A DNA stretch of 64,000 bases from Mycobacteriales bacterium (GCA_046590575.1 JBKJUS010000107.1:9934-73933), one strand, 5' to 3'; shown: positions 2,305 to 38,150, counted from the first letter of the stretch. The notes: generated by a model from the letters alone, not told the origin. Numbers and translations are program-made.

Positions 2305-2389
2305 TGTGTGGTCCTTTCCCCCGTAGTGCGGACTCTGCCCGTTTGGCTGGGTGTGCCGTCGATAGAGGTGGCGCGCGTAGAGCTGGAAG

Positions 2390-4741
2390 TTAGGAGGCTC
2401 GGGCAGTCACATAGCGGTCAACGCGGTCGGTCAGCGTGAGGCGGGTGATGACCGTTCTGGCCGCCTGCTCGTCGGCGCCAGCCGTGAGGAGGAACAGTCC
2501 GCCAAGACGGGCCACGGCGGCGCCGAGGGCGGCAGCCTCGACGGCTCGGCGAGCGTCGGCGACGTACACGACGTTCACCGGGAAGCCCCGGGAGAGCGCG
2601 TGCCGGGCCACGACCTCCGAGGTTGCCGCCGCGCCATTGCCGCCCAGTCTCGTCGGCTTGGGCAGCTGCGCGAGCACTGCCTCACTGATTGCGGCCGGAC
2701 CTCCGATGACCAGCGTCGAGCTGACGCCGAGACGAGTCAACGAGTCGCGGGTCGCAGCCGGCAGGGCGTCACGATCGGTGAGCAGGACGGGCAGCCGTAG
2801 GGTGGCGGCCAAGCCCGCGGCAGCGCCCGCGTCGGCGCTGCGGGGATTGACGATCACGGCCTCGCTGAACGCGGGCTTTCCGACGAGCGGAAGCTTGTCC
2901 GTCTGGGTACGACGGTCGAGGAGGTCGGCGATGCGGACGGCGACGTCCACAGCAGGGCCAGCGAGCCGCACGATCTTGTCCTCGGGCACACCGGCCTGGG
3001 CCAGGTCGGCAATGACCCGATCAGACAGGGAATTCTGGTCGCCGAGCACGTAGGCACCGATCGGCCGCAGCCTGGTCACTTCCTTCTTCAGTGCGGGAGT
3101 GAGGCCGGACGCCGTCGACAGCAGCAACGGTCCGAGCTTGGCCCGGGCGAGCACTGCGCCTGCGGTCGCGGAGCCGACGTCAGTCGCGTTGGCGACGACG
3201 ACGTGGGTGGCGGGTGCGTTGGCGAACCCACCCGTGAGGATCGACTCCCCGCCGGCGGGGTAGGCGAGCCGCGAAAGCTGCACGGAGTAGGCGTCGATGC
3301 CCTGGCCCGCGATCCTGCGGATGGGCGGATTGCCGGCCCCGGTGACCTGAACCCGGTTGAGGTAGATGTCTTGGTTCTCTGAGTCGGCGTTGCCGTCGCG
3401 GGTGTCCATCCAGGCGACCAGGAGAGCATCGTCACCGAGTGGCACCGCCACCGGCCCGAACGACCAGTAGCTGCAGCACTTGTAGTCGAGGCCGAGGTCG
3501 TTGTTGATCGACCGGTCAGTCAGCCGGCGGTTGGGCGAGAACGTCTTGCCTCCGTCGGTCGACATCGACCAGTAGGTATCGCCGATACGCGGCTCGCCGT
3601 TGCCCGCGTGCGCGTCGCTCGGCGAGTTGTAGCCGTGCCTCCGGTCGTGCCAGACGATGTCGATCCGGCCGTTGCGGGCGACTGAGATATTGGGGTGGCG
3701 CTGAGTGATGACGTTGCCGAATCGGTCGTCGTTCACGCGCTGTTGGGGTGCGAAGGTTTTGGCGCCGTCGGTCGAGCGGAAGAACGTGACGTCGGAGTCC
3801 TTGGGGATGAAGTGGTCCTTGCCGGAGACCTGTCCCGGCCGCGGGACGGCGCCGTCGGAGCCGGCGGGTGGCGGTTGGCCGATGACGACATAGACCTGAC
3901 CCGGACGGATGCCGACGGCCAGCTGGGGGAACTTCGACCCGGCTGAGTCGATCGGCCCGGCAGGGGTCTGGGTCCACGTCCGGCCGAAGTCCGACGATCG
4001 GCCGACGACAACGAAGTTCTGAGCTCCGTTGTCGGCCGTGCGCCAGGCGAGGTACAGCGTGCCGTCCGGGCCGATCGCTGGCTGGCTGGCCTCGTCAGCG
4101 GTGGTCGTTGTGGTATTGGCCCGTCGCGGCGGGCTCCAGGTGCGCCCGCCGTCCTCGGACACTGTGACGAAGGCGGCGGTCGGGCTGCCACCGTCGGAGG
4201 CCACAACGATGCGGTCGCCCTGGGGGCGTCGCTGGACGGCGATCTTGGGATACGTGTACCCCGGCATAGTCTCGACGGCGCGGCCGAAGGTCGCACCACC
4301 ATCCGTCGACGTCGCCACCAGGACGAAGATCTCGTTTGCCGCGTTGCGTGCAGAGAACGTCGCGTAGACGCGCTGACCGGTCCCGAAGGCGACTCCACCG
4401 TCGATGTTGCCGAATCCGGCCCCACCGTTGCACGGGTGCTCGGCGTAGCCCACCGGTCCGCGCAGATGTCCGCTGCGCCAGGTGCGACCGCCGTCGCGGC
4501 TCACGTGGTGGTCGCAGTCTCTGCGTCCCACATCGCCGTCGACAGCGACCAGGTGCCGGGCGTCCGCCGGGTTGACCGCCAATCCGGGGGCCACGCGGGC
4601 GCGCCCCTGCGTCTTGTCGGCGCCGAGTCGGTAGTTGGTGCTGGTGCCGCGAGTCTGGCCGCCCTGCGCGCCTGCGGCGGTAGCAATGAGGCCGAGAGCG
4701 ACGCCGAGGGCTAAGGCGTGCCGGGAGGTGAAGGGGGACAT
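2390..4741 (-). CDS. secreted BNR/Asp-box repeat protein with three C-terminal putative cell-wall-binding (CWB2-like) repeats
   Basis: The ORF 2390..4879 is trimmed to an internal ATG that gives MSPFTSRHALALGVALGLIATAAGAQG (signal peptide). Asp-boxes are present (SRDGGRTW, STDGGATFG, SEDGGRTWS, SSDFGRTW, STDGAKTF, STDGGKTFS). The C-terminal ~300 aa is made of three ~100-aa repeats (LLLSTASGLTPALKKEV..., VIVNPRSADAGAAAGLAATLRLPVLLTDRD..., VVYVADARRAVEAAALGAAVARLGGLFLLT...), typical of CWB2 domains. Confidence 0.7.
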   Translation of the reverse strand: MSPFTSRHALALGVALGLIATAAGAQGGQTRGTSTNYRLGADKTQGRARVAPGLAVNPADARHLVAVDGDVGRRDCDHHVSRDGGRTWRSGHLRGPVGYAEHPCNGGAGFGNIDGGVAFGTGQRVYATFSARNAANEIFVLVATSTDGGATFGRAVETMPGYTYPKIAVQRRPQGDRIVVASDGGSPTAAFVTVSEDGGRTWSPPRRANTTTTTADEASQPAIGPDGTLYLAWRTADNGAQNFVVVGRSSDFGRTWTQTPAGPIDSAGSKFPQLAVGIRPGQVYVVIGQPPPAGSDGAVPRPGQVSGKDHFIPKDSDVTFFRSTDGAKTFAPQQRVNDDRFGNVITQRHPNISVARNGRIDIVWHDRRHGYNSPSDAHAGNGEPRIGDTYWSMSTDGGKTFSPNRRLTDRSINNDLGLDYKCCSYWSFGPVAVPLGDDALLVAWMDTRDGNADSENQDIYLNRVQVTGAGNPPIRRIAGQGIDAYSVQLSRLAYPAGGESILTGGFANAPATHVVVANATDVGSATAGAVLARAKLGPLLLSTASGLTPALKKEVTRLRPIGAYVLGDQNSLSDRVIADLAQAGVPEDKIVRLAGPAVDVAVRIADLLDRRTQTDKLPLVGKPAFSEAVIVNPRSADAGAAAGLAATLRLPVLLTDRDALPAATRDSLTRLGVSSTLVIGGPAAISEAVLAQLPKPTRLGGNGAAATSEVVARHALSRGFPVNVVYVADARRAVEAAALGAAVARLGGLFLLTAGADEQAARTVITRLTLTDRVDRYVTARAS

Positions 4742-4918
4742 GCGGATGGACTCGCTTTCACGTGCGTCTGGGTGGTGGGTATAGGTGCAGACTTCTGCGT
4801 TACGACCGTCACTCCTGCGCCGTGGGCGGAACGGGCCGCACAGCGATGAAGGGGCAGCCCAGGCGGGCTGCCCCTTCATCGGACGGTGCTGACGGTCCAG
4901 TGCGACCGCGTGGAGTGC

Positions 4919-5665
4919 CTAGCGGGAGGTGCGCGCCTCGGCCGGGCGGCGACGACGGCTGGCGACGGCGACGGTGCCGGCACCCACGGAGAGCGCGAGG
5001 CCGATGCCGACGAGGGAGAGGGCCAGGAGAAGGCCGTCACCGCGGGGTGCCATGGTGGTGGAACGCCGAGCCGCCGGAGCCGCTGCAGGAGCGCCCTGGA
5101 TGGCCGGGGCAGCTACCGCCGCCGGAGCCGCTGCAGGAGCCGGAGCGACGACGGCGGCAGGCGCCGGAGCGGCGATGCCGGGCTGAACAGCAGAGCCGCC
5201 CTGACGGGCCGGCGCCTGGGCCGGCGCGGCCGGCTGCTGGTTAGCGGCGGCGGGCTGGGCCGGGCGGGCAGCGACTGGCTTGGCGAGCACCTCGAACGGT
5301 GCGCGGGCCGGAGTGCCGCCGATAGGCTGGCCGTTCTGACCCATCTGGGTGGCGATCAGGACGTAATCGCCAGGGGCAGCCTGGGGCACGGTGAAGTTGA
5401 AGGCGATCTTGCCATCAACAGCCGGCCGACCCGACCACAGAACCTGACCATCGCGGGCGTTGAAGTGCACCTCGACCGGGCTGGACAGTGGACTGTTGCT
5501 GAAGCCGGCACCGGTACCGGCGACGTCGGCGCCGACCTGGGCCGCACTCTTGTCAACCTCGAGGGTGGCCAACGCCGTGCAGGCGTAGGCGAACGACATA
5601 GCGGCGAGCGGGACACCCACCAGTCCGGCGATGACGATTGACGATCGTCGGGTCCTGATCCGCAT
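4919..5665 (-). CDS. Pro/Ala-rich secreted, membrane-anchored hypothetical protein
   Basis: The internal ATG MRIRTRRSSIVIAGLVGVPLAAMSFAYA has a strong RBS (aaggagga). The protein has an N-terminal signal/TM, a globular segment, a long PA-rich low-complexity linker, then a C-terminal hydrophobic helix LLLALSLVGIGLALSVGAG followed by a RRRRP tail. The longer ORF start at 6118 has no support. Confidence 0.55.
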   Translation of the reverse strand: MRIRTRRSSIVIAGLVGVPLAAMSFAYACTALATLEVDKSAAQVGADVAGTGAGFSNSPLSSPVEVHFNARDGQVLWSGRPAVDGKIAFNFTVPQAAPGDYVLIATQMGQNGQPIGGTPARAPFEVLAKPVAARPAQPAAANQQPAAPAQAPARQGGSAVQPGIAAPAPAAVVAPAPAAAPAAVAAPAIQGAPAAAPAARRSTTMAPRGDGLLLALSLVGIGLALSVGAGTVAVASRRRRPAEARTSR

Positions 5666-5816
5666 TGCGTCCTCCTTTGGGGGAGACGATGTCTCCACAT
5701 ACTGCACGGCTGGGTGCAAACTGCACCTATTGTCCCGAATCGGGCACTCGGTTGTCAACCACGCGACTTCGCGGGCGCGGCGCGCCCAATCTGTGGCGCG
5801 CAGCCGACCGGTTACG

Positions 5817-7346
5817 GTGTGCGACGTGCCTCGATGTCGCCGCACTTGGCACCATTCAGCCGCCGTTCCTGCGATGGTGGCGGCCCTCCTTGGAGGCGTC
5901 GCCTGTACGCCGGCGACACCCGCTAGCGTCGCGGCGCCGAAGGCTGGGGTCGAGGTCTTCGTCAACACCCCGGGCGCCATCGACGCCAACAACACACCCA
6001 CAATCGTACGAAATCCGCGGCGCCCCAGCACATTGGTGGTCGTCCACCGGGTCGACCGGCCACGCTTCTCCGGGACGCTGCGCTGGAGCCAGGACGACGG
6101 CGCGACCTGGGGCAGCACTGCGCTGCCCTTGCCCTCGGGAAAGGACCGGCCGTTCCACCCGGACGCAGCGTTCGGGCCCGATGGTGTCCTCTACGTCGTA
6201 TACGGCAACCTCACCGGACCGCGCAACATGGGCGACGGGATCTGGGTCGCCACCTCGACGGACGGCGGCCGCACCCTGACGGAGCCCGTCCGCGTTGCCG
6301 CCGCTCGGTCCTTCCAGCCGCGGATCGCGGTGAGCCGCGGCGGCATGGTGCACGTGACCTGGTTGGCGGGCCGGGGCGTTTCGGTCCTCAAGCTTGTCGA
6401 CCCTCCGTCGCCGATCGTGACCGCCCGGTCGACCGACGGCGGCCGCACCTTCGGGAAGCCGGTTCAGGTCAGCGATCTGACGCGCGCGCGGGTGGGGGCC
6501 GGGAAGCCGTTCATTGACGGTCGTGGCGACCTCGCCGTGCTCTACATCGACTACAAGAACGACCGCAGAGACTTCGAGGACGAGCCGGGCCCGCCGTCGG
6601 ACGAGCGTTTCGCGCTGGTGCTTACTCGGTCCGGCGATGGAGGCAAGACGTTCGACCGCGGCGTTGAGATCGAGCGCGACGTGGTGCCGGCTCGTCGCTT
6701 CCTGGCCTTCGTGCCGGAATACGCCGACCTAGCGGTCGGGCCGGACAAGGCGATGTACGCCGTGTGGTCGAGCCGGCTCGACGGCGATGAGGATGTCTAC
6801 CTCCGCAAGTCCACTGACAACGGCGAGACCTGGTCCGAGGCGGTGAGGGTTGGCGCCGCGATGGACAACACCGCCGCCGACAAGTCGTCGCAGTACTTGC
6901 CGTCGGTTGACGTTGCGCCGGACGGGCGGGTGGACGTCCTGTATCTCGACCGCGCTCGTGATCCACGTGACGTGCTCGCGGACGCGACGCTAGCCACGTC
7001 GTACGACGACGGCCAGACATTTCAGGTTGTGCGCCTGTCCTCGAAGTCCTTCGACTCGACTGTCGGCTCGTCGGTCTCGCCCAACCTCCCCGCAGACTTC
7101 GGCAGCCGGCTGGCGCTGCTCAGCGAGACCGGCCGCGCGGTCGCAGCGTGGACCGACACGCGCATGGGGAACGCCGACACCGGTCGGCAGGACATTGCGC
7201 TTGTTCGCATCACGCTGGCTGAGAAACGCGCCGGGCGCGGGCCGCTCTGGAGCGTCGGGGCCGGCGTCGCCGCCGCTGCGCTGGCCGCGTTGGTGGGGAC
7301 ACTCATCTTGCGCCGTCGCAGGCGTCGGGGGAGGGTGGCGCGATGA
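5817..7346 (+). CDS. BNR/Asp-box repeat protein with C-terminal TM anchor (paralog of 820..2304)
   Basis: Asp-boxes are present (SQDDGATWGS, STDGGRTLTEP, STDGGRTFGKP, SGDGGKTFDRG, STDNGETWSEA, SYDDGQTFQ). The C-terminus is LWSVGAGVAAAALAALVGTLILRRRRRR. The start is uncertain: GTG at 5817 or 5826, or ATG at 5874, giving a lipoprotein-like MVAALLGGVAC. The track start at 5631 would overlap the upstream minus-strand gene. The stop overlaps the start of the next gene (ATGA). Confidence 0.7.
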   Translation: MCDVPRCRRTWHHSAAVPAMVAALLGGVACTPATPASVAAPKAGVEVFVNTPGAIDANNTPTIVRNPRRPSTLVVVHRVDRPRFSGTLRWSQDDGATWGSTALPLPSGKDRPFHPDAAFGPDGVLYVVYGNLTGPRNMGDGIWVATSTDGGRTLTEPVRVAAARSFQPRIAVSRGGMVHVTWLAGRGVSVLKLVDPPSPIVTARSTDGGRTFGKPVQVSDLTRARVGAGKPFIDGRGDLAVLYIDYKNDRRDFEDEPGPPSDERFALVLTRSGDGGKTFDRGVEIERDVVPARRFLAFVPEYADLAVGPDKAMYAVWSSRLDGDEDVYLRKSTDNGETWSEAVRVGAAMDNTAADKSSQYLPSVDVAPDGRVDVLYLDRARDPRDVLADATLATSYDDGQTFQVVRLSSKSFDSTVGSSVSPNLPADFGSRLALLSETGRAVAAWTDTRMGNADTGRQDIALVRITLAEKRAGRGPLWSVGAGVAAAALAALVGTLILRRRRRRGRVAR

Positions 7347-8107
7347 GAGTCGCCTTTGTGGGAAAGGGTGGGGCCGGCAAGTCGGCCATCGCCGGCACGT
7401 TCGCCCGGTCGCTCGCGCGTCGCGGCACATCGGTGCTCGCGTTGGACACCGATCCGCTCCCCGGCCTGGCGTTCTCGCTAGGCCTGCCCTCGACAGACGC
7501 GCCGATCCCGGAGGAAGCCACCGAGGAGAAGGCCGAAGGGGAGGATGGCCCGCGCTGGCGATTGCGCTCGGATCTGACGCCAGTAGAGGCAGTAGAGCGG
7601 TACGCCGCAACGGCGCCCGATGGCGTGCGCTTCCTGCAGTTCGGCAAGGTGCGGCGTCAGTGGACGGCGCCGGAGGTTCGCTCGCAGTTCGTCTTCCGGC
7701 AGATCGTTCATTTCCTCCCTGAGGAGCCGTGGAGCCTCGTCGGTGACCTTCCTGGTGGCACCCGACAGGCGTTCGGCGGGTGGGGGGGCTTCGCCCGCAC
7801 CATGCTCGTGGTGGTCGACCCCAGCGCCAAGTCGCTGCTTTCGGCTCGAAGGCTGGCCCGACTCGCCTCGATCGGCGAGGACCCGCCGCGGGTTGTTGCG
7901 GTGGTCAACCGCGTGCGTCAGGACGACGACGAGGCACTGGTGGCGCGGCGTAGTGGGCTCGATGTGGTGGGCGCGGTGCCATGGGACGAAGAATTCGCCG
8001 ATGCCGAACGTCGTGGCCTGGCGCCCATAGACGCCGCGCCGAACTGTCCGGCAGTGAAGGCAGTAGAGTCCCTCGTCGACCGACTGTGCGAGGAGTCCAG
8101 AGCATGA
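7343..8107 (+). CDS. CooC/MinD/ParA-family deviant-Walker-A P-loop ATPase, Cys-less paralog A
   Basis: N-terminus MRVAFVGKGGAGKSAIAGTFARSLARRG (KGGxGK[ST]). The conserved C-terminus is DAERRGLAPIDAAPNCPAVKAVESL. It has no CxC metal-binding motif and is closest to the paralog at 12846..13586. Confidence 0.8.
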   Translation: MRVAFVGKGGAGKSAIAGTFARSLARRGTSVLALDTDPLPGLAFSLGLPSTDAPIPEEATEEKAEGEDGPRWRLRSDLTPVEAVERYAATAPDGVRFLQFGKVRRQWTAPEVRSQFVFRQIVHFLPEEPWSLVGDLPGGTRQAFGGWGGFARTMLVVVDPSAKSLLSARRLARLASIGEDPPRVVAVVNRVRQDDDEALVARRSGLDVVGAVPWDEEFADAERRGLAPIDAAPNCPAVKAVESLVDRLCEESRA

Positions 8108-8844
8108 AGCTAGCCGTCGTCGGCAAGGGTGGGTCGGGCAAAACCACCACCTCCGCGATCATCGCGCGCACCTTCGCCCGAAACGGCGCGAACGTCGTCG
8201 GTCTCGACTGCGACTCCAACCCGAACCTCGGCATTTCGCTAGGTGTCGGCGACGACGAGACGGAGCGGCTTGAGTCCATGCGCCAGGCGCTCGACGAGGG
8301 CGACGAGGAGCACGCGCCGGGCTGGGACGAACTGATCGAGCGGTTCGGCTCCGACGCCCCTGACGGGGTTCGCCTCGCGGTGGTCACCCGCATTCAGAAC
8401 CCGGAGCCCGGCTGCCCTTGATGTGGTCTCTCTCCCGAGCAGTTGCTCGGGTCCGTGGACTTCACCGACACCGTCGTCGTCGCTGACCTCGAGGCCGGCA
8501 TCGGCACGTTGACCCGCATGGGTGACCAGAAGATTGACGTCGTACTCGTCGTCGTCGAGCCGACGCCGAAATCCGTCGAGGTCGGCGTACGGGCGTGCGC
8601 GCTCGTGCGGGAGAAGCAGTCGGCTGGGCAGCTCATCGTCGTGGCCAGCCGCGTGCGCAACGACGACGACCTGGCGATGGTGCGCAAGTCGTTCCCCGAC
8701 GAGGAGGTCGTGCCGATTCCTGACGACCCAGCCATCGTCGCCGCCGACCGCGAAGGGGTGGCCGCGCTGGACCGTACGCCGGACGCACCGGCCGTGCGCG
8801 CCCTGGTTGAACTGGCCGAGCGACTGCTGCCTGCAGGCGTCTAG
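8104..8844 (+). CDS. CooC-like P-loop ATPase with an in-frame TGA (8419..8421); candidate selenoprotein, read-through product 246 aa
   Basis: Track ORFs 7981..8421 and 8443..8844 are in the same frame with no other stop between them. The N-part is MKLAVVGKGGSGKTTTSAIIARTFARNG...NPEPGCP-TGA-CGLSPEQLLGSVDFTDTVVVADLEAGIGT..., so the two halves together equal one full-length paralog. The TGA lies inside the CxC-motif region that Cys paralogs have (GCLCSAHATV.., GCTCSGHATV.., ACVCCGSHAT..). A perfect 7-bp hairpin, cccgagc-agtt-gctcggg, sits at about 8434..8451, 12 nt after the TGA. selABCD are in this window. Confidence 0.6.
8434..8451 (+). promoter_or_regulatory. candidate SECIS-like hairpin 12 nt downstream of in-frame UGA 8419..8421
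   Basis: cccgagc-AGUU-gctcggg forms a 7-bp perfect stem. The spacing matches the roughly 11-nt UGA-to-stem distance of bacterial SECIS elements. Confidence 0.35.
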
Positions 8845-8848
8845 GCGG

Positions 8849-9232
8849 ATGGATTCTCGGCTCGCGCTTCCACTCGCCGGGTTAGCCGTCGGCGGCTGGG
8901 CGCTGCTGCCGCCGTATTCCGGTCCAGCGTTGAACACTGAGACACGCGTTGAGGTCATTGACCACGTCGTCCCCGGCATCGTGCTGCTCGCCGTAGCTGT
9001 GCTGTGCCTCGCTGTTCGTCGCGCCACGCTGCCGTCGGGGCTGATCGTGGCTCTCTGCGGCTTATGGATGGTCGCGACCCACGTGCCGCTGGTGCGCCAG
9101 GCCGCTGACGGCGCCGCGCCGTGGAGCGCCGTCGCCTACCACGCGGCGCCGTCGGTGGCAGTGTTGATGGTAGGTCTGTTGTGGGTGGTCCAGACATGGT
9201 CGGCTGAGGCGAACGAAAGCGCCCGGCACTAG
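8849..9232 (+). CDS. small polytopic membrane protein (about 127 aa, about four hydrophobic helices), hypothetical
   Basis: Internal ATG MDSRLALPLAGLAVGGWALLPPYSG... The sequence is strongly hydrophobic throughout. The longer ORF 8522..9232 would overlap the ATPase gene. Confidence 0.5.
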   Translation: MDSRLALPLAGLAVGGWALLPPYSGPALNTETRVEVIDHVVPGIVLLAVAVLCLAVRRATLPSGLIVALCGLWMVATHVPLVRQAADGAAPWSAVAYHAAPSVAVLMVGLLWVVQTWSAEANESARH

Positions 9233-9245
9233 CATCTGCGCCCTG

Positions 9246-10775
9246 ATGCCCAGCGTGTCGCTCCACCCTTCGCGGCTGCCCGCCGATGCCGACGGCGTTG
9301 CGTCGGGTGAACTGCGCATCCGGAACAACTCTCGTACGACGAAGACGTTCCGCCCGGAGGTGACCGGCGCCGCCGCCGACTGGGCGTCATTCTTTCCGCC
9401 GTCGGTCGCCGTCGGTCCGGGGCAAACCGGTGTGGTCCGATTGAACATGCGCGTGCGTCCCTCCCCGTCGACGCCAGTCGGGGTGGTCGACTTCGCGGTG
9501 GTGATCCACGGTGACGCGAGTGCGAAGCGCACGTTGTCTGTCAACGGGTCGATCGATGTTGCGGCACGGGCGGTGGTGGTGACCACCGTCGGCCCCATCA
9601 CCAACCCTTCGCCGTCTACCTCCATGCAGATGCTGCATATAGAGAACCGCGGAAACGGTGCGGGTCGGATGGCTGTGAGCGCCGCCGGTTCTGGCGTGCT
9701 CGTCGATGTCTCGCCGGAGCAAGCCGAACTGGCACCGGGTGAAGAGGTTGCGGTCGCCGTGCGTGCTCGGGCGGCGCGGCGGACATGGCGGGACAGTCGC
9801 GAGCTGCCCTTCCAGATCGACGTCGATGGCACGGGTGCGGCTCCCCGACGCATAAACGGCGCAGTCGCGCGGCGTCCGCTGCTGACGCGCCGCGCGGGTT
9901 GGGCGGCTACGGCCGGGCTGGCGGTGTTGCTGACGGCGGTCGTGCTGCGTACGACGGTTTTGGCTCCTGCTCCTGAAACGAAGCGGGTCATCGCGAAGGC
10001 GTGCCCGACGGCCGGCCACGAGCCGTCGTTGCGCAATGCGATCTCGTTTCCGCCCGGCCCGCTGAACAAACCGGCGACGGCGTACACCTACTACTCGCTT
10101 GAGCCTGGAAGCTGCGTAGCGCCGCGATTCAACCCGTGTGAGCCGTTGCGGTACGTGCTGAACTCGGACGCGGCACCCGCTGGAGGAGTGGCCGACGCGA
10201 AAGCCGCCCTCGCCATCGTCTCGGCGGCCACCGGCTTGTCCTTCGTCGAGGTCGGCTCGACCGACGAGAAGTTCAGCGCAGTGCGGTCGCCGTACCAGCC
10301 AGAGCGGTACGGCAACGAGTGGGCCCCTCTGCTGATCGGCTGGTACCGCCAAGGTGGCAGTGACAACCGGGTGATCCTCGGCCAGTCGCGCCCCTACGTT
10401 TCTCAAGGTGTTTACGTCAGCGGGTTCATCGGCCTCAATGTCGACGCCTACACCGAAGCCGAGACGAGGAGCCCGCTGAAGAGTGGGTTCGGCCCGGTGC
10501 CCGGCGCCGTGCGGGGACAGCCGATCGGCGCTCGAGGGGTCACTTGGGGCCGGGTGCTGCTGCACGAGCTGGTCCACCTGGTCGGTCTGGCCCACGTCGC
10601 GGACAGGTCACAACTGATGGTGTCCGAGCTCTCCCTGCACACCAATCCGCGGGCGGAGCTCGGCGCCGGAGACGTGGCCGGGCTGCGCACCCTCGGTCGG
10701 GCCGCAGGATGTCTTCCTACGCCGCCGGCGGGCTCACCCGGGCGCTACCCGGCGCCACCTCCTCCTTTCCTCTGA
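9246..10775 (+). CDS. membrane-anchored protein with C-terminal metzincin-type Zn-metalloprotease motif (HExxHxxGxxH)
   Basis: HELVHLVGLAHVAD is near the C-terminus. A single central TM (GWAATAGLAVLLTAVVLRTTVL) is present. The N-terminal region has two Ig/CARDB-like beta-rich segments. Downstream of the TM the protein is Cys-containing and Pro-rich. Confidence 0.65.
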   Translation: MPSVSLHPSRLPADADGVASGELRIRNNSRTTKTFRPEVTGAAADWASFFPPSVAVGPGQTGVVRLNMRVRPSPSTPVGVVDFAVVIHGDASAKRTLSVNGSIDVAARAVVVTTVGPITNPSPSTSMQMLHIENRGNGAGRMAVSAAGSGVLVDVSPEQAELAPGEEVAVAVRARAARRTWRDSRELPFQIDVDGTGAAPRRINGAVARRPLLTRRAGWAATAGLAVLLTAVVLRTTVLAPAPETKRVIAKACPTAGHEPSLRNAISFPPGPLNKPATAYTYYSLEPGSCVAPRFNPCEPLRYVLNSDAAPAGGVADAKAALAIVSAATGLSFVEVGSTDEKFSAVRSPYQPERYGNEWAPLLIGWYRQGGSDNRVILGQSRPYVSQGVYVSGFIGLNVDAYTEAETRSPLKSGFGPVPGAVRGQPIGARGVTWGRVLLHELVHLVGLAHVADRSQLMVSELSLHTNPRAELGAGDVAGLRTLGRAAGCLPTPPAGSPGRYPAPPPPFL

Positions 10776-10799
10776 CGGCGCAAGGGCATACTGGCCGCC

Positions 10800-11573
10800 A
10801 TGAAGCTGGGAGTGGCTGGCAAGGGCGGCGTGGGTAAGACGACGATCTCAGCGGTGCTCGCCCGTTCGCTGGCGCGGCGTGGTCACCGGGTGGTCGCTGT
10901 CGACTGCGACTCCGACCCCAACCTAGCCGCCAACACAGGACTCACTGAGGTCGAGGCGGCCGGTGTCCGCACCCTGCTCGACCAGTCTTCGGCGGTGCGC
11001 TCGGTGCCGGTCGGAGTAGGTCCCCGAGGGCTGCTTGCGGAGTACGGCCGGAGTGGACCGGACGACATCACTCTTCTGACTGCGGCGCGAGCAGAGCGAG
11101 CCGGCTCTGGTTGAACGGGTGCCGCCCACGTCACGGTCCGTGACTTCCTGCAGCAGTTCGACTCTGAGATCGCGTCGGGCGTCGTCATCGCCGACATGGA
11201 GGCAGGTCTTGAGCACCTGTCCTGGGCGGGCGGCACCCTGCGCCACATCGACCTGCTCCTCGTCGTGGTGCAGCCCTCGCCCAAGGTTCAGCTCACGGCG
11301 CGTCGAATCGTGGCGTTGGCCCGTCAGCTCGGCATCCCGCGCACCGCGTTCGTCGGCAACCGGCTGCGCGACGGCGACCTCGAACAGCTGCGCACTTTTG
11401 CCGGCGAATGTGGCGTCGAGCTGCTGGCCACCATCCCCGAGGACGTTGCGGTGCAGGCGGCTGACCGCGTCGGCGATTGCCTGCTCGACTCCGCCCCGGA
11501 CTCCGATCTGGTGCGGGCCGTAGACGGTCTAGCCGCGCGGCTCGAAGCGGACTTCCTCTCCGTCCTGTCGTAG
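10800..11573 (+). CDS. CooC-like P-loop ATPase with an in-frame TGA (11112..11114); candidate selenoprotein, read-through product 257 aa
   Basis: Track ORFs 10800..11114 and 11196..11573 are in the same frame with no other stops. The read-through sequence ...AARAERAGSG-U-TGAAHVTVRDFLQQFDSEIASGVVIADMEAGLEHLSWAGGTL... aligns residue for residue with paralog 13583..14338, ...NEAGAGCTCSGHATVRSFLGDALADQADITLVDMEAGLEHLSRAGGTL... The TGA falls exactly on the first Cys of the CxC motif. A 6-bp hairpin gtcacg-gtc-cgtgac with a GUC loop lies at about 11130..11144, 15 nt after the TGA. Confidence 0.65.
11130..11144 (+). promoter_or_regulatory. candidate SECIS-like hairpin 15 nt downstream of in-frame UGA 11112..11114
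   Basis: gucacg-GUC-cgugac forms a 6-bp stem with a GUC apical loop, which recalls the G/U apical loop of the E. coli fdhF SECIS. Confidence 0.35.
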
Positions 11574-11688
11574 CGGCGCCAGCACGCGAGCGCGCCGCTG
11601 GTATCCCTGTCCGCCTTGCTGGCACCAGTAGATGCCGTGCGCATATACTCGCGCCGGACTGCGCGGTGACCAGGTTGGTGGATGGCGG

Positions 11689-12069
11689 ATGGCGAACAGG
11701 GCTGGGGCCAGCGGGGAGTTCACGGTGAAGAGTCGTCGTGGCTCTTTCCTGACGCAGTCTCTGTTGCTCTTGCTCGAAGAGCGCCCCGACCACGGGTACG
11801 ACCTGCTTGACCGGATGGAGCACCTGGGTCTCGCGCGAGACTCCGGCGGGATGTACCGCACACTGCGCAGCCTCGAGGCGGAGGGGCTCGTCCGGAGCCA
11901 GCGCGCGCCCTCGCTGGCCGGACCGGAGCGGCGACACTACTCACTCACCCAGGACGGCCGACAGCGGCTCGACGAGGACGCCGGGGAGATCGCCGAGACC
12001 GTGCGCCTGCTTCAGCGATTCCTTCGGCGGCACCGGGCCGCAATCGCACTTCGGCACCCGACGGATTAG
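11689..12069 (+). CDS. PadR-family transcriptional regulator
   Basis: LLLLLEERPDHGYDLLDRMEHLGL...MYRTLRSLEAEGLV...RRHYSLTQDG matches the PadR winged-HTH signature. The start is taken at the internal ATG MANRAG. Confidence 0.8.
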   Translation: MANRAGASGEFTVKSRRGSFLTQSLLLLLEERPDHGYDLLDRMEHLGLARDSGGMYRTLRSLEAEGLVRSQRAPSLAGPERRHYSLTQDGRQRLDEDAGEIAETVRLLQRFLRRHRAAIALRHPTD

Positions 12070-12105
12070 CTCGGCACCCCGCAGATTGCCTGCACTGCAG
12101 TGCCG

Positions 12106-12849
12106 TCAGCCGTCGAGGAGCCGTGTCGTGAGCTCGTCGATGGCGACCATCGCCGGGGACCCCGCGTCGTGGTCCAACGGTGAGATGCCGAGATGGTCAG
12201 CCCGCTGCACGGAGGGGTCGTCCGGAATCGCGATGGTCTCCACGCCGAGCAGCTCCGAGAGCCGGACCCGCTCTGCCTCGGAGTGACAGCGCGCCGCGAC
12301 ACCGATGATCCTCTTGACGCCGAGGGTGTCGGCGATGTCGCGCGCCCGCCGGGCTACTTCGAACGCCTTCGCACTGGGCTCAGCGACCGCGATGACGACG
12401 TCCGTCGAGCCGGGCTTGGCCCAGATCAGGTCGTTGAGACCCGCCTCGAGATCGGCGATGACAGTGCGCCCGTCATCGGAGAGGGCACTGAAGAGCTCGC
12501 GAGTCGTCGCGTGCGAGCCGCAGCAGACGCAGGCATTGGGGATGCGCTCGATCTTGCCGGTCGCGACGAGGCGTACGCCGTCCGGGGTGTCGACGCCGTA
12601 CCGTTCGAGCAGCATCTCCGGGTCAGGGCGCGGGTCGTTGTGCGTGTGGCCGCTGCGGATCAGCCCGTTGAGCACCGCGTCCATCGACTCGACCGCATCG
12701 ATGGACAGGCCGAGCGTGACTCCGAGGTTGGGGCTCGGGTCGCAGTCGACGGCCACGACGCTCTGACCGCGGCGGGCGAGCAGCCGGGCCATGGTCCCGG
12801 AGACAGTGGTCTTGCCTGCTCCGCCCTTGCCGGTGACGACGACTTTCAT
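12106..12849 (-). CDS. CooC-like P-loop ATPase, Cys paralog D (CVCC motif)
   Basis: MKVVVTGKGGAGKTTVSGTMARLLARRG...IPNACVCCGSHATTRELF...VIADLEAGLNDL. The start overlaps the stop of the upstream gene. Confidence 0.85.
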   Translation of the reverse strand: MKVVVTGKGGAGKTTVSGTMARLLARRGQSVVAVDCDPSPNLGVTLGLSIDAVESMDAVLNGLIRSGHTHNDPRPDPEMLLERYGVDTPDGVRLVATGKIERIPNACVCCGSHATTRELFSALSDDGRTVIADLEAGLNDLIWAKPGSTDVVIAVAEPSAKAFEVARRARDIADTLGVKRIIGVAARCHSEAERVRLSELLGVETIAIPDDPSVQRADHLGISPLDHDAGSPAMVAIDELTTRLLDG

Positions 12850-13586
12850 AGTCGGACCTCCTCGCGCACCAGCAGGCCGGCGAGCGTCTCGATTGCGCCG
12901 ATGACGGGGGAGTCCGGGCAGGCGTCCAACGGAGCGAGACCGCGGCGTTCTGCGTCGGCCACGTCACGGTCGAATGGAATGCGAACGTCGGGCGCGAGGC
13001 CCTCGTGGTCCGACTCGCCGGTGAACTTGCTGGCCACCACGATGTAGGGGAGTCCGGGGAAGAGCCCGGCGAGGCGGCGGGCCGCCAGCGCGGACTTCCA
13101 CGCGGGTGTCACGACCAGCACCAGCCGCTGGGCGAAGCTGCTGTAGCCCTCGTACGGCGTCGTCGTACCCGCCTCGAGGTCGCCGATGACATCCCAGGAG
13201 GAGTCGGCCTCCCCGACGATCTGCCGCACTGCACCGAGGGAATGGCTGACCAGGTGGTTCGGCCTGTCGATCTTGCCGGGGCTGAGGTATCGCACCCCGT
13301 CGGGACTCTCGGTCGCGACCCGTTCCAGGATGTCTATGGAATTCACGTCCGGTGCCAGACCCCACCCGTAAAGTCCCTTGGGCACCTCGGCGATGAACTC
13401 ATCAGGAAGTCCCGCATCAGTGGGCTCGCTGCCTAAGCTCCACGCGAGGCCGGGGTTGGGGTCGAGGTCCACGGCGAGCACCTTCCGCCCGCGTCGGGCG
13501 AGGAGGCGGGCCAAGGTCCCGGAGATCATCGACTTGCCGGCGCCGCCGTTTCCCACGACGGCGACGCGCAGACCGACGCTGCTCAC
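12846..13586 (-). CDS. CooC-like P-loop ATPase, Cys-less paralog E with degenerate Walker A (GNGGAGKS, signature Lys replaced by Asn)
   Basis: A GTG start overlaps the upstream TGA (GTGA). The sequence is VSSVGLRVAVVGNGGAGKSMISGTLARLLARRG...VADAERRGLAPLDACPDSPVIGAIETL, similar to paralog A. The 150-aa Arg-rich N-terminal extension of the track ORF is spurious. Confidence 0.7.
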   Translation of the reverse strand: MSSVGLRVAVVGNGGAGKSMISGTLARLLARRGRKVLAVDLDPNPGLAWSLGSEPTDAGLPDEFIAEVPKGLYGWGLAPDVNSIDILERVATESPDGVRYLSPGKIDRPNHLVSHSLGAVRQIVGEADSSWDVIGDLEAGTTTPYEGYSSFAQRLVLVVTPAWKSALAARRLAGLFPGLPYIVVASKFTGESDHEGLAPDVRIPFDRDVADAERRGLAPLDACPDSPVIGAIETLAGLLVREEVRL

Positions 13587-14338: not shown

Positions 14339-14488
14339 GACCGGACCTCCACATGCTTGGCTGGCGATGACCCGCACTGGCGCGCACACTCTCACGAGAC
14401 CGTCTCATCGCACGGTGTCGCGGAAAGTTTGGCGCCGTGCCATCCTGCGGCTGAGGCGGGTGATGTGCAACCAAGGGAGCAGCTTCGA

Positions 14489-17958: not shown

Positions 17959-18039
17959 GCAGGCCTCCGGCGTACGACGGCGTCGTCGCCGTGGCACGAG
18001 TCTAGATGTTTGACACATCGACAGCATAGGGTCGCTGTC

Positions 18040-18555: not shown

Positions 18556-18575
18556 GGGCGCTTCTGCATGTGGCG

Positions 18576-19070: not shown

Positions 19071-19111
19071 CTGCGCAGAATAGGGATTGCGATGGCTCGG
19101 GTAGGGACGCG

Positions 19112-20350: not shown

Positions 20351-20354
20351 CCCC

Positions 20355-21791: not shown

Positions 21792-21859
21792 CGCGACTCG
21801 ACCGAGGTCGAGGTCGCCCTGCAGCAGCTCGCCGACGCCGCCGACGAGGACCGACGGGC

Positions 21860-23761: not shown

Positions 23762-23789
23762 GGGCTAAGGGCTCCTTCGTGCGCTGGGA

Positions 23790-25154: not shown

Positions 25155-25309
25155 GGGCGGAACCCCTTACGTATGTGACCGCTGCACCTACTGGCGAGGA
25201 CCTTACAACGCGCGGCTCGCATTGTGAACGTAGGTGGACTATCCGTTTCGACCGAACATGAGCGACACTGAGTGCCGGACACATCCACTGACCTCGGACG
25301 GAGTTTTGC

Positions 25310-33158: not shown

Positions 33159-34964
33159 CTACGGCAGGGGGCCAGGAGCAGCCACCACCACGCGCTGGGA
33201 GTCGTCAATGCGGCGGGTGAGACCGAGTCGGTCGAGGTGCTCGAGCAGCGGGACCGCAACCCGACGTGTGGTGCCCAGCGCTTGGCGCGCCTGGCTCATG
33301 GAGAAGGGCTGAGGAAGCGCTGCAAGCGTCGGCAGTGCCGATTCGACGGCGTCCGGGAGAAGGTAGATCCCGTCCGTCAGCGCCAGCAACATCCCGTGCC
33401 GCACCGCCGTCGCAAGAACGGTTGCGGTCAATCCGAGTGAGTCGAGATCCGCGGCGGCCGGCGCGGCGTACGGCGTCTCCGCAAGACGTCGGGCAACCTG
33501 GCTCAGCGCGTCGCTTTGGCCGTCAGTGAAGCCAGGCGCGGCGCCGGCCCGGCGTACCAAGCCGCCGCTCGACTCCAGAGTCGGCACATCGGCGGCCAAC
33601 GCCGAAAGCAGCCTGGCGTCAGGGGCACCGACGGCTTGCCGTGCTGCCTCTGTCGGCAGACCACCGCGCAGCGGGTGCCGGTGTTCGTCATCTGCCACCG
33701 CGGCCACCAGTAAGTGCTGCCATTGCTGCCATTGCGCGGCGGAGATCAACCAGTTCCCCACCTCCACCGTGTCCTCGGGGGCTGGGTCGTCCTGGTGGAT
33801 CACTCCCCACGCCGCGAGCTCTTCCCGGCGGACCGCACCGCGTCGGCGCACCTCGCCAGCCGGGTCCGGTGCGCCGCTCATGCCCTGCAGAGACGTGGCG
33901 CGCCTCGCCGCCCCGCCGCGCCGTGACAGCGGCTCCGGCGCGGCGTCGAGAACGACCACTCCGGCGACCACCCGCTGCTCTCCTGGGTCACGCAGCAGGG
34001 CCCGATCGCCGGGCTGAAGCGGTAGTGCCGCTGTGAGGTGCAGCCGGGCGGTGTCATCGCCGAGTCGGCGTACGTCGACGGCCACAGCGGCGGATCCGAC
34101 GTGCATCAGCAGGGTGGCCGGCAAGCGGGCCGAGCCTTCCGACCCAGCGTCCAGCCGCACGTCGACCAGGTCGGTGGTTCGCCAGCCGCCGACGGTCACC
34201 AGCGCATTGCCCCGGCGTACGTCGGAGACATCGACACCTCGCAGGTTGACCGCGACGCGAGCTACGGCCTCGACCTGGTCGGCATGACGTTTGAGGCTCT
34301 CCAGCCCGCGGACCCGTACCTGGAGGCCCTGCGGGGAGATCTGCAGCGTGTCTCCCACGCGCAGGGTTCCCGCGCCGAGCGTGCCGGTCACCACCGTGCC
34401 GCTGCCCCGGATGGTGAACGCCCGGTCGACCCACAAGCGAACGCGCGCAGCAGGGTCCGGCTCCGGGAGATCACCTACTAGACGATCGAGCGCACTCCGC
34501 AGGTCGTCGACACCTGCACCGGTGACTCCGCTCACCGCTACCGCTTCGACATCACCGAGAGCCGTGGCCCGGAGGTGCTCCAACGCTTCCGCCATGGCCG
34601 GGCCGGGGCTGGCGAGGTCGCAGCGGGTGATCGCGAGCACGCCATGCCGGACCTGAAGTGCGTCCAGCGCTGCCAAGTGCTCGACCGACTGCCGACTCCA
34701 ACCTTCGTCAGCAGCCACGACGAAGAGGACCGCCGGCGCCGGCCCGACGCCGGCGAGCATGTTGGGCACGAAGCGCTGGTGCCCCGGAACGTCGACGAAG
34801 GCGATCTCCACTCCGGACGGCAACGTGGTCCAGCCGAATCCGAGGTCGATCGTCATGCCCCGCCGGCGTTCCTCCGCCCAGCGGTCAGGCTCCATGCCGG
34901 TGAGCGCGCGGACCAACGTCGACTTGCCGTGATCCACATGGCCTGCTGTCGCGACGACGTGCAA
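33159..34964 (-). CDS. selB: selenocysteine-specific translation elongation factor SelB
   Basis: MHVVATAGHVDHGKSTLVRALTGMEPDRWAEERRRGMTIDLGF...FVDVPGHQRF is collinear with E. coli SelB (GHVDHGKTTL...RGMTIDLGY...DVPGHEKF). Length 601 aa with a long C-terminal SECIS-binding extension. Confidence 0.9.
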   Translation of the reverse strand: MHVVATAGHVDHGKSTLVRALTGMEPDRWAEERRRGMTIDLGFGWTTLPSGVEIAFVDVPGHQRFVPNMLAGVGPAPAVLFVVAADEGWSRQSVEHLAALDALQVRHGVLAITRCDLASPGPAMAEALEHLRATALGDVEAVAVSGVTGAGVDDLRSALDRLVGDLPEPDPAARVRLWVDRAFTIRGSGTVVTGTLGAGTLRVGDTLQISPQGLQVRVRGLESLKRHADQVEAVARVAVNLRGVDVSDVRRGNALVTVGGWRTTDLVDVRLDAGSEGSARLPATLLMHVGSAAVAVDVRRLGDDTARLHLTAALPLQPGDRALLRDPGEQRVVAGVVVLDAAPEPLSRRGGAARRATSLQGMSGAPDPAGEVRRRGAVRREELAAWGVIHQDDPAPEDTVEVGNWLISAAQWQQWQHLLVAAVADDEHRHPLRGGLPTEAARQAVGAPDARLLSALAADVPTLESSGGLVRRAGAAPGFTDGQSDALSQVARRLAETPYAAPAAADLDSLGLTATVLATAVRHGMLLALTDGIYLLPDAVESALPTLAALPQPFSMSQARQALGTTRRVAVPLLEHLDRLGLTRRIDDSQRVVVAAPGPLP

Positions 34965-34967
34965 ACG

Positions 34968-36269
34968 TCAGCCCGCCGCTCCGGCAACAGCCAACACCGC
35001 GTCGCAGAGCTCGGCATCACGCGCAGCGGGAACGCAGCGGAGGTCGAGCAGACAACGGTCGCGCTCGACCCGGCCGACGACACAGGGGTCGCCGAGCCGC
35101 AGCGGCTCGGCAAAGCCAGGAGGCAGGGTGACCGCGGCGCCGGGCAGCACGAGACCGGGCGCGCCGCCGCCCCCGACCGCACCGTCGGAGTCCTCCACGG
35201 TGGCGTCGACACCGCGGCTCACCAAGTCGGCGACCATGGCCGCTGCCCGGAGACGCAACCCATCCTGGCTCTCCGCGAGCGCCGATTGGGTCGGCGTAGC
35301 CGGCCCGCGGATAGTTGCTTCGAGAGCTGCGAGGGTGAGCTTGTCGACACGCAGCGCGCGGGCCAGCGGATGCCGTCGTAGTCGTTCAACCAGGTCCGCG
35401 CGGCCGAGGATCAGACCGGCCTGCGGTCCGCCGAGCAGCTTGTCGCCGCTGCACGTCACCAAGCCAGCACCGGCCTCAAGCGCAGAGGTCGCATCCGGCT
35501 CCGCCGGCAGGATGGGATCGGGGTGGAGCAACCCAGAGCCGATGTCGACGACGAGCGGTGGGCCGAGCGCGGCGAGCGCAGCCACGCTGACCGAGCTGGT
35601 GTAGCCCACGACGGCAAAGTTCGACGGGTGAATCTTCACGATGCACCCGGTGGATTCGTTGACCGCGTCGGCGTAGTCCTCAGCCGAGGTCCGGTTGGTA
35701 GTGCCCACCTCACGGATCCGCGCTCCGGTCGAGCAGATCAGCTCCGGCAGGCGGAACCCGTCCCCGATCTCCACCAGCTCACCCCGGCTGACGACAACCT
35801 CGCGTTCGGCAGCCAGGGCGGTGACCGCAAGGACAAGGGCTGCTGCTCCGTTGTTGACGGTGAGGGCTGCCTCTGCGGCGGGCACTGCCGAGAGCAGCGC
35901 TGACGTCGTGCCGCGTCCCCGCGACGCGCGACGTCCGGTGGCCACGTCGTACTCAAGGTCGACGTAGCCCGCGGCCATCGTGACGGCGGCCACCGCCTGG
36001 TCCGAGAGAGCGGCCCGGCCAAGATTGGTGTGCAGCACGACGCCGGTTGCGTTCAGCACCGGGCGCATCCGCACCGGCACGCCGGCCAGGGCGCGGGCGA
36101 CCTCGTCGGCGACCTGATCGGGTGCGATCTCTCCGGCGCGGGCGCGGGCCACGGTATCGATCACGACCCGTTTTGCTTCCGTCCGGTTCACGCGCTCGAG
36201 CGCGGCGAGCACGCGGGGCTCGGCGAGCACGGAGTCGACACGTGGCAGCTGACGCCTGCTGTCTGTCAT
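34968..36269 (-). CDS. selA: L-seryl-tRNA(Sec) selenium transferase SelA
   Basis: LPRVDSVL, NATGVVLHTNLGRA and the PLP-fold region match SelA. The stop abuts the selB start, and the start is the ATG at 36269. Confidence 0.9.
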   Translation of the reverse strand: MTDSRRQLPRVDSVLAEPRVLAALERVNRTEAKRVVIDTVARARAGEIAPDQVADEVARALAGVPVRMRPVLNATGVVLHTNLGRAALSDQAVAAVTMAAGYVDLEYDVATGRRASRGRGTTSALLSAVPAAEAALTVNNGAAALVLAVTALAAEREVVVSRGELVEIGDGFRLPELICSTGARIREVGTTNRTSAEDYADAVNESTGCIVKIHPSNFAVVGYTSSVSVAALAALGPPLVVDIGSGLLHPDPILPAEPDATSALEAGAGLVTCSGDKLLGGPQAGLILGRADLVERLRRHPLARALRVDKLTLAALEATIRGPATPTQSALAESQDGLRLRAAAMVADLVSRGVDATVEDSDGAVGGGGAPGLVLPGAAVTLPPGFAEPLRLGDPCVVGRVERDRCLLDLRCVPAARDAELCDAVLAVAGAAG

Positions 36270-36567
36270 GAGCTCCCTCGGCCACACCGGTTTTGAAGCC
36301 TGACCTTACCGATTTCGGCGACCCTGCTGAGCGGCGCAGCCTTGGCCGTGACGGCGGAACTCGGACAGGAAACCTCCACCGTTGGGCGGACGCTTCCGCG
36401 CCGGGCGCGATGCATCCTGTGCTGATGCCGTCCTCGGGACTCTCGCCAGTCACCCTGTCCGCATCCACGCTCCGGACGCATCCATCGGAGACCCCGTGAA
36501 GCTTCCTGTTCGTTCCGCACTCGTCGTCGCCGCGGCTTCCGCTCTGGTGTTCCGTAGTCAGAGCATG

Positions 36568-36663
36568 TGGCGGAGGCGGACGGGAATCGAACCCGCCTGA
36601 CCGAGATCCTCGGCCACACCGGTTTTGAAGACCGGGAGGGCCACCAGGCACCTGTACGCCTCC
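36568..36663 (-). tRNA. selC: tRNA-Sec (selC), anticodon UCA, 96 nt, CCA encoded
   Basis: The reverse complement reads GGAGGCGTACAGGTGCCTGGTGGCCCTCCCGGTCTTCAAAACCGGTGTGGCCGAGGATCTCGGTCAGGCGGGTTCGATTCCCGTCCGCCTCCGCCA. The anticodon loop CUUCAAA carries UCA, there is a long variable arm, the GTTCGATTC T-loop is present, and it has an extended acceptor stem. It lies between selA and selD. Confidence 0.85.
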
Positions 36664-36725: not shown

Positions 36726-37739
36726 ATGACGGTGACGGAGAGCGCGAAAACGTATCGGCTGACGCAGTTTGCCCACGGGGGTGGCTGTGCCTGCAAGATC
36801 CCGCCCGGCGAGCTCGAGCAGATCGTCGCCGGTCTGGTCGGACTTGATCCGTCCGACGGGACCGCGGAGCTGCTCGTCGGTCTGGACGGGGGTGACGACG
36901 CTGCAGCGGTGCGCATCGATGCGAAGACCGCGGTGCTGTCGACGGCCGACTTCTTCACCCCCGTCGTCGACGACGCCTACGACTGGGGCCGGATCGCTGC
37001 CGCCAACGCGTTGTCGGACATCTACGCGATGGGCGGCACCCCTCTGCTCGCCATCAACTTGCTCGCGTGGCCGCGAGACGTCCTGCCCCTGGAGCTGGCG
37101 ACCGAAGTGCTCAGAGGCGGTTTGGATGTTGCCCGCGAGGCACGCTGCCACGTGGCCGGCGGACACAGCATCGACGATCCCGAGCCGAAGTACGGCATGG
37201 CCGTCACCGGGGTCGCCCATCCCGATCGCCTGTTCCGCAATGACGCGGGACGCCCGGGCGACGTGCTCTCGTTGACCAAGCCGCTGGGCATCGGCGTGCT
37301 TAACAGCCGGCACAAGCAGACGGGGGAGGTTTTTCCCCAGGCCATCGACGCTATGACTTCTTTGAACCGCGATGCGGCAGGTCACGCGCTGGCTGCCGGT
37401 GTCCGTTGCGCGACGGATGTGACTGGCTTCGGCCTGCTGGGCCATCTGTACAAACTCGCGCGCGCCAGTGGAGTCACCGCCGAGATCGACTCCAGCGCTG
37501 TGCCCTATCTCGACGGCGCAGTGGCCGCGGCGCGCGACGGCTTTGTTAGTGGTGGGACGCGCCGCAACCTCGACTGGGTCGACCCGCACGTCGACTTCGG
37601 CACCATGGATGAGGTGCAGCGGCTGCTCTTGGCCGACGCGCAGACGTCAGGGGGCCTCCTCGTCGCCGGTGAGGTGCCGGGCGCGCCGATCATCGGACGC
37701 CTGGTCGCGCGCGACGGAGTGACCGTTCGGGTCCGGTGA
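36726..37739 (+). CDS. selD: selenide, water dikinase SelD (selenophosphate synthetase), Cys-type
   Basis: MTVTESAKTYRLTQFAHGGGCACKIPPG... is collinear with E. coli SelD (RLTQYSHGAGCGCKISP). The active-site residue is Cys, not Sec. Confidence 0.9.
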   Translation: MTVTESAKTYRLTQFAHGGGCACKIPPGELEQIVAGLVGLDPSDGTAELLVGLDGGDDAAAVRIDAKTAVLSTADFFTPVVDDAYDWGRIAAANALSDIYAMGGTPLLAINLLAWPRDVLPLELATEVLRGGLDVAREARCHVAGGHSIDDPEPKYGMAVTGVAHPDRLFRNDAGRPGDVLSLTKPLGIGVLNSRHKQTGEVFPQAIDAMTSLNRDAAGHALAAGVRCATDVTGFGLLGHLYKLARASGVTAEIDSSAVPYLDGAVAAARDGFVSGGTRRNLDWVDPHVDFGTMDEVQRLLLADAQTSGGLLVAGEVPGAPIIGRLVARDGVTVRVR

Positions 37740-38107: not shown

Positions 38108-38150
38108 ACAGCCCCGGCGCCACCATGACAGCCACCCCGGAAGGGACACG

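Follow-up and report, generated by a model that had tools for sequence, protein, structure and literature searches.

A putative selenocysteine-containing ATPase of the CooC/MinD type near a group 1h-like [NiFe]-hydrogenase cluster of a Mycobacteriales bacterium

The 64,000-nucleotide stretch of DNA from a Mycobacteriales bacterium analysed here (GCA_046590575.1, JBKJUS010000107.1:9934-73933), called the window in the following, carries on its plus strand a gene for a CooC/MinD-type ATPase with an in-frame TGA which, in all probability, is decoded as selenocysteine (Sec). The coding sequence at 8104..8844 starts with the ATG at 8104, ends with a TAG whose last base is 8844 and comprises 246 codons, with a Walker A motif and, at codon 106 (8419..8421), its sole in-frame TGA, which is flanked by the residues ...NPEPGCP-TGA-CGLSPEQLLG and thus creates the predicted motif C104-P-U106-C107-G. 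The open reading frame (ORF) translates as MKLAVVGKGGSGKTT...NPEPGCP in front of the TGA and as CGLSPEQLLGSV...LPAGV-stop behind it. Although a mechanical ORF list contains two halves, 7981..8421 and 8443..8844, the proposal of a first-pass annotation that these represent one full-length paralog is borne out by the single frame of 246 codons. The window has a G+C content of 68% and most of its strongly coding ORFs, those with a high G+C content at third codon positions, end in TGA, so that TGA serves this genome as a normal stop codon; a genome-wide reassignment of TGA was rejected on the basis of this stop-codon usage. When the whole window was scanned for in-frame TGAs flanked on either side by coding signal, only the site of codon 106 and two ordinary gene junctions were flagged.

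A protein search with the ATPase yielded 1160 matches, the best 120 of which are all full-length (approximately 245 amino acids) and without exception (120/120) carry a cysteine at the position of the TGA, within a motif that is almost invariant among them, PGCPCCG[LIV]SPEQLL. The expectation of the first-pass annotation that homologs possess cysteine where the UGA stands is thereby confirmed. On the other hand, the TGA itself recurs. A DNA pattern for P-G-C-P-TGA-C-G, run on one genome per GTDB species, retrieved 52 loci, of which 50 are true homologs with sequence conservation on both sides of the TGA, while the other two, L016 and L030 from Cyanobium and Sphingomonas, are unrelated chance matches. 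A metagenome scan in which TGA, TGC and TGT were accepted gave 85 TGA, 21 TGC and 11 TGT forms among the 117 usable matches listed; both DNA scans demanded the exact CP-x-CG context. Carriers of the TGA form belong to the Acidimicrobiia, Mycobacteriales, Pseudonocardiaceae, Nocardioidaceae, Geodermatophilaceae and Thermoleophilaceae and include two Chloroflexota, and with Pseudonocardia nigra DSM 104088 (L003, NZ_JAHKRK010000058.1) there is a cultured representative. In total, this TGA, in an unchanged motif, was found in at least 134 independent loci, which come from about 50 species and numerous assemblies, and is not a matter of chance; by our own estimate, a pattern equivalent to 20 bases would match by chance about once in 596 Gb.

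The frame around the TGA is maintained. The part downstream of the TGA has a length of 130-159 amino acids in 120 of the 121 complete TGA loci, and of 113 loci, 97 have an N-terminal part of exactly 105 codons. Frameshifts or extra stops, named beforehand as signs of pseudogenization, are absent from 120 of the 121 complete cases; a single TGA-form locus, L081, contains an additional stop, 37 codons past the TGA, for which either pseudogenization or faulty assembly could be the reason. Differences from the window sequence amount to 5084, 3907 and 8630 at the first, second and third codon position respectively and thus fall mostly on the third.

Twelve nucleotides past the TGA starts a hairpin of seven perfect pairs, CCCGAGC-AGTT-GCTCGGG, at 8434..8451 (plus strand; stem 8434-8440/8445-8451, loop AGUU at 8441-8444), which at the same time encodes P-E-Q-L-L-G and is a candidate bacterial Sec insertion sequence (SECIS). 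The hairpin had been noticed in the first-pass annotation, together with the suggestion to look for its conservation in homologs, and it turns out to be conserved specifically in the TGA forms. Among 146 unique downstream sequences (119 TGA forms and 27 Cys forms), and with at least five contiguous pairs at the fixed position required, it is present in 115 of 119 TGA forms versus 3 of 27 Cys forms (Fisher p 2.8e-20). Codon choice follows the same division: the leucine codon TTG, rare in a high-GC genome, which provides the U of the loop, is used in 118 of 119 TGA forms versus 2 of 27 Cys forms, and the glutamate codon GAG in 119 of 119 versus 20 of 27. Across 107 distinct TGA sequences, 96.9% of the stem cells are paired, with slid-partner controls at 16-44%. 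The outer stem pair changes from C-G to G-C in six sequences, where proline is replaced by alanine together with a change of GGG to GGC, and the third pair varies between U-G, C-G and U-A. The inner four pairs are invariant and are also fixed by the conserved residues E-Q-L-L, so that they carry no information alone; it is the avoidance of synonymous codons in the TGA forms only which represents the informative signal. Two TGT forms, L142 and L161, have retained the hairpin and the TTG loop codon and look like recent conversions of Sec to Cys; L142 is nearly identical to the TGA form L057 over the region shown.

A complete set of genes for Sec incorporation is encoded as one block at 33162-37739, about 25 kb from the ATPase gene, with selB, selA and the tRNA gene on the minus strand and selD divergently oriented. 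The block consists of selB for the Sec-specific elongation factor (33162..34964, minus strand; domains GTP_EFTU, SelB-wing_3 and Beta-barrel_SelB), whose winged-helix domain binds the SECIS, selA for Sec synthase (34971..36305, minus strand; PF03841, E 4e-97), the tRNA-Sec with the anticodon TCA (36568..36663, minus strand; Rfam RF01852, 78.6 bits) and selD for selenophosphate synthetase (36726..37739, plus strand; TIGR00476, E 4e-118). The latter is of the Cys type (GGGCACK) and itself no selenoprotein. Among the related loci, L050 has a tRNA-Sec at a distance of 1.5 kb from its homologous gene, and L028 carries selD.

Recoding of UGA through a bacterial SECIS is a textbook mechanism, according to which the mRNA hairpin 12 nucleotides past UGA-106 would act as SECIS and recruit SelB-GTP-Sec-tRNASec, upon which the UGA would be read as Sec and not as stop. 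Like the SECIS of the Escherichia coli fdhF type, the hairpin is located just 3' of the UGA inside the coding sequence, exposes a G-U in the apical loop some 20 nucleotides on and would be read by the C-terminal winged-helix domain of SelB, a domain present in the SelB of the window. The loop G-U is G24-U25 when counted from the U of the UGA; in E. coli fdhF it is reportedly G23-U24. Unlike the E. coli element, the stem is a plain perfect helix of seven pairs with a loop of four nucleotides and without a bulged U, and its sequence is family-specific, with no match to an Rfam model. The pairing of Cys and TGA at one position, the intact frame, a SECIS kept only with the TGA and the Sec machinery's presence are the grounds on which 8104..8844 is considered, with high confidence, a genuine selenoprotein gene.

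The predicted product belongs to the CbiA/ParA/MinD-type P-loop ATPases (PF01656, E 2.8e-11), with a deviant Walker A motif, GKGGSGKT at residues 7-14, which fits the KGGxGK[ST] of the MinD class. In the NCBIfam scan every match stayed far under the cut-off, and there is no equivalog or curated model for this protein. In a PDB sequence search, the closest solved relative was CooC1 of Carboxydothermus hydrogenoformans (3KJE, E 1e-14; PDB 3KJE-3KJI, COG3640), an ATP-dependent nickel-insertion factor for the Ni,Fe CO dehydrogenase. The closest Cys homolog, 76% identical and derived from a metagenome-assembled genome (MAG) of the Acidimicrobiia, has an AlphaFold model with a predicted local distance difference test score of 88.8, which displays the MinD/CooC/NifH fold with a template modelling (TM) score of 0.70 to 3KJE and in which the CPCC loop is the part of lowest confidence. 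Besides the fold, CooC1 and the Sec ATPase have in common the deviant Walker A motif KGGxGKT and a Cys motif in the same loop, and the Cys homologs carry the JGI label 'CO dehydrogenase maturation factor'. C104-P-U106 aligns on the C-Y-C of CooC1, with U106 in place of the second cysteine and the extra Cys107 next to it. Placement of the UGA in the metal site by the first-pass annotation stands, with the refinement that the motif is not just CxC but C-x-C-C (CPCCG), with Sec in place of the middle cysteine. A product of the CooC/MinD/NifH class (SIMIBI) would thus position a Cys-Pro-Sec-Cys loop like the nickel-binding Cys-x-Cys of CooC1 at the dimer interface, and since the loop sits where CooC1 has this motif, a bound metal, be it nickel or a bridging Fe-S cluster, most likely has the selenolate among its ligands. 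Unlike CooC1, the motif C-P-(C/U)-C-G offers a third cysteine plus Sec, the gene is coupled to a Cys-less paralog and accompanied by a third paralog, and the neighbours encode a [NiFe]-hydrogenase, not a CO dehydrogenase.

Indeed, seven paralogous CooC/MinD-type ATPases of three types are clustered at 7343-15268 of the window. The Sec gene, a type A member (CxCC), is preceded by a type B partner without Cys motif (7343..8107, plus strand), a gene directly upstream in most related loci, whose TGA stop shares bases with the start ATG of the Sec gene (ATGA); the Sec gene is predicted to be translationally coupled to it, and the two products may form a type A/type B heterodimer. A second pair of a Cys-less and a CxCC protein lies on the minus strand, with a type B gene at about 13577-12849 and a type A gene at 12849-12109 in the Cys form CVCCG, with cysteine where 8104..8844 has Sec. 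Type C is characterized by the canonical CxC of CooC and encoded at 14341-13583 (minus strand), at about 14489-15268 and, with an in-frame TGA at 11112-11114, at 10800-11573 (plus strand). Across 163 related loci, a type B gene usually stands in front of a type A gene on the same strand, and a type C gene is convergent to them. That a second paralog, 10800..11573, also possesses a UGA at its metal site, as noted before, proved to be real. In this type the TGA replaces the first cysteine of the motif, in the context GSG-U-TG in the window and AGAG-U-[TLA]-C in other loci (L001, L013, L050 and L104), and a hairpin of 6-8 pairs follows about 15 nucleotides downstream with GU in the loop and stems that differ by compensatory changes. 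With five Sec forms versus 65 Cys forms among the fetched loci, the TGA forms of type C probably constitute a second unlisted selenoprotein family.

The region 17839-28762 harbours a complete-looking [NiFe]-hydrogenase cluster of the actinobacterial type (group 1h-like). It encodes a NifU-like protein (17839-18555), a maturation protease (18576-19235, minus strand), a TPR protein (18962-20350), the large (21863-23764, minus strand) and the small (23793-25166, minus strand) hydrogenase subunit, HypC (25292-25582), HypD (25579-26712) and HypE ending in ...PRIC (about 26712-27782), and it includes a SIS-domain protein. The structure nearest to the large subunit is 5AA5 (E 1e-147), an actinobacterial-type group 1h enzyme. 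Of the related loci, 15 have a large subunit of the window type (77-80% identity) and 20 have HypD, and a hydrogenase maturation protease, NifU-domain, TPR, HupF/HypC-like and small membrane proteins as well as HypD are recurrent neighbours; where at least 4.5 kb of flank is available, about every second locus carries hydrogenase-maturation genes at a distance of up to 6.5 kb. As the gene set is embedded in or near group 1h-like hydrogenase and maturation clusters, the context points to a [NiFe]-hydrogenase rather than to CO dehydrogenase as the client. The Sec ATPase may thus be a nucleotide-driven metal-delivery or maturation factor for a group 1h-like [NiFe]-hydrogenase. That the protein and its partners deliver metal to this enzyme is a proposition with roughly even odds, the metal being most likely nickel and alternatively an Fe-S cluster.

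A functional analogy for a CooC/MinD ATPase in a hydrogenase cluster is provided by Thermococcus kodakarensis, where an ATPase of the MinD class serves as HypB and delivers nickel to the [NiFe]-hydrogenase (PMC13202556). With respect to sequence relationship, the PDB search at E<=1e-3 returned CooC1 and MinD chains only and not the T. kodakarensis protein, and, unlike for the latter, a simple motif scan detected no HypA next to the Sec gene. The T. kodakarensis HypB itself is not known to carry a metal-binding Cys motif.

Other genes of the window surround these clusters. Four or five small and similar single-helix membrane proteins are encoded after selD at 37835-39451 (plus strand); in 33 related loci, their homologs, grouped as the 'smallTM' cluster, follow the Sec gene at a downstream distance of about 1.8 kb, and the run calls to mind the HylTM1-5 proteins that have been reported from hydrogenase clusters of group 1l. 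On the upstream side of the ATPase cluster, at 823-7346, three BNR/sialidase-like repeat proteins are encoded (823-2406, minus strand; 2393-4918, minus strand, with cell-wall-binding repeats; 5631-7346, plus strand), and a few of the related loci likewise have a BNR homolog in front of the type B/type A pair.

The explanation which accounts best for the sequence data as a whole, a SECIS-driven decoding of UGA as Sec in a CooC/MinD-class ATPase with a presumed role in metal delivery to hydrogenase, is assigned a probability of roughly 0.88. Several observations weigh against it. True covariation in the hairpin is confined to two or three outer pairs, and the counts of TGA and Cys forms, obtained by exact-context scans and, for the metagenomes, among the matches listed, are not abundances. 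Rfam did not match a SECIS family in the whole window at the gathering threshold or, with noise only, in 8350-8520 at E<=10; bacterial SECIS elements are poorly modelled in Rfam, so that this result was not counted against the hairpin. As to the role, the structural genes of the window hydrogenase are 13 kb away from the Sec gene, the other half of the well-flanked loci has no hydrogenase gene within 6.5 kb, and the adjacent NifU-like genes suit an Fe-S rather than a nickel role. CO dehydrogenase is found neither among the recurrent neighbours within 6.5 kb to either side in the 163 loci nor among the scanned ORFs of the window, and HypA, HypB and HypF were not detected in the window by the simple motif scan, which makes for a weak negative; with no CO dehydrogenase, HypA or HypB nearby, client and metal are something we infer.

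Among the alternatives, the one that survives best accepts the selenoprotein and assigns it another job, either Fe-S delivery, with a [4Fe-4S] cluster bridged on the CxUC loop in the manner of Mrp, Nbp35 or NifH, or a function outside hydrogenase maturation. The NifU-domain protein (17839-18555 in the window) is among the commonest neighbours, present in 23 of 42 loci with downstream flank, Fe proteins of the NifH/BchL type match the structure no less well (TM about 0.7), each monomer offers three Cys/Sec where CooC1 uses two ligands, and the loci lacking a hydrogenase gene fit as well. However, the closest relative in sequence is CooC1, with Sec or Cys right on its nickel-binding CxC, a group 1h-like hydrogenase co-occurs with HypC, HypD, HypE and a maturation protease, and MinD-type ATPases are known as nickel-insertion factors (PMC13202556), so that a job other than nickel insertion appears possible, though the less favoured assignment.

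Far less probable is a split gene, in which the TGA would be a true stop, the C-terminal half would re-initiate at the TTG at 8443, 21 nucleotides on, and the two halves would assemble. Re-initiation is the only serious alternative account of this codon: TTG is a legal start, kept in 118 of the 119 TGA forms, a purine-rich GAG stands a few bases before it, the mechanical ORF 8443..8844 begins precisely there, and RefSeq has the N-terminal half from P. nigra as a separate protein of 105 amino acids. On the other hand, the residues specified by the seven codons from the TGA to the TTG (C-G-[LIV]-S-[PA]-E-Q) are conserved although the third bases change, and the synonymous differences ahead of the hairpin extend to a switch of the serine codon family from TCN to AGC in L017, which argues that these codons are translated. 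Moreover, the TTG forms part of a hairpin loop and the outer pairs of this hairpin co-vary, all full-length homologs (the best 120 of 1160) have Cys at the TGA, the full Sec machinery is encoded in the window, and the break would fall within the central sheet of a protein that folds as a single domain.

A pseudogene or a sequencing or assembly error, that is, a nonsense mutation in a Cys-type CooC-like gene, to which the further stop in L081 and the treatment of the gene as truncated in public annotation might point, is scarcely credible given the same TGA codon in so many independent loci, species and assemblies, an intact downstream frame with a coding substitution pattern and a hairpin selectively kept only when the codon is TGA. 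The assertion of the first-pass annotation that a Sec-decoded UGA with a SECIS-like hairpin, and not a random pseudogene, is present at the locus has accordingly withstood scrutiny with regard to recurrence, frame, hairpin and machinery.

A protein of this kind is missing from the current inventories. The self-described most comprehensive inventory, a review from 2026, comprises 119 prokaryotic selenoprotein families and subfamilies with no CooC/MinD/ParA-type ATPase among them (PMC13188914), BSepDB with its 111 families has no mention of a CooC/MinD-type ATPase selenoprotein family, and literature searches on CooC and selenoprotein as well as on CooC and actinobacterial hydrogenase found nothing relevant. 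The nearest entry of the inventory is a CobW-related selenoprotein (NF041053, UxxC; PMC13188914). Both are predicted, belong to the superfamily of P-loop metallochaperone NTPases (SIMIBI/G3E) and have Sec in a Cys-rich metal motif, but the CobW-related protein is a G3E GTPase with UxxC, whereas the Sec ATPase is of the MinD/CooC type, and NF041053 is absent from its NCBIfam matches at E<=0.01. As far as these sources show, there is novelty in the family itself, in the placement of Sec within an ATPase of the metallochaperone type and in the hydrogenase setting.

In RefSeq, the P. nigra gene appears as a 'nucleotide-binding protein' or AAA family ATPase of 105 amino acids (WP_219415758.1) which ends at the UGA. 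The 90% cluster of this protein contains 15 members of 103-108 amino acids from JGI, ENA, Logan and NCBI, which all end at the UGA, and similar fragments of 103-108 amino acids are labelled 'CO dehydrogenase maturation factor' by JGI. This mis-annotation makes the finding directly useful for annotation pipelines.

Nearly all known selenoproteins are redox enzymes, and from aerobic high-GC soil bacteria few are known apart from formate dehydrogenase. In the present case, Sec would belong to the metal-binding loop of an ATPase of the maturation type, driven by nucleotides. The analysis adds one well-supported selenoprotein family and probably, with the CxC-type paralog, a second one, both absent from the 2026 inventory (PMC13188914). 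The link to group 1h-like clusters suggests an uncharacterised and possibly selenium-dependent step in the maturation of enzymes that consume atmospheric H2, a question which the cultured carrier P. nigra DSM 104088 renders directly testable. On a more speculative note, a dedicated three-paralog CooC-like machine of Cys-less, CxCC and CxC members might build the high-affinity [NiFe]-hydrogenase of H2-oxidising aerobic soil Actinomycetota and some Chloroflexota, with two of the members existing as selenoproteins in which Sec would directly ligate the metal to be delivered. Many of the carrier MAGs bear desert or Antarctic isolate labels. If this tentative scheme were true, the Sec ATPase would be the first selenocysteine-based metallochaperone, and the scavenging of trace gases in soils of deserts and polar regions would have a hidden dependence on selenium.

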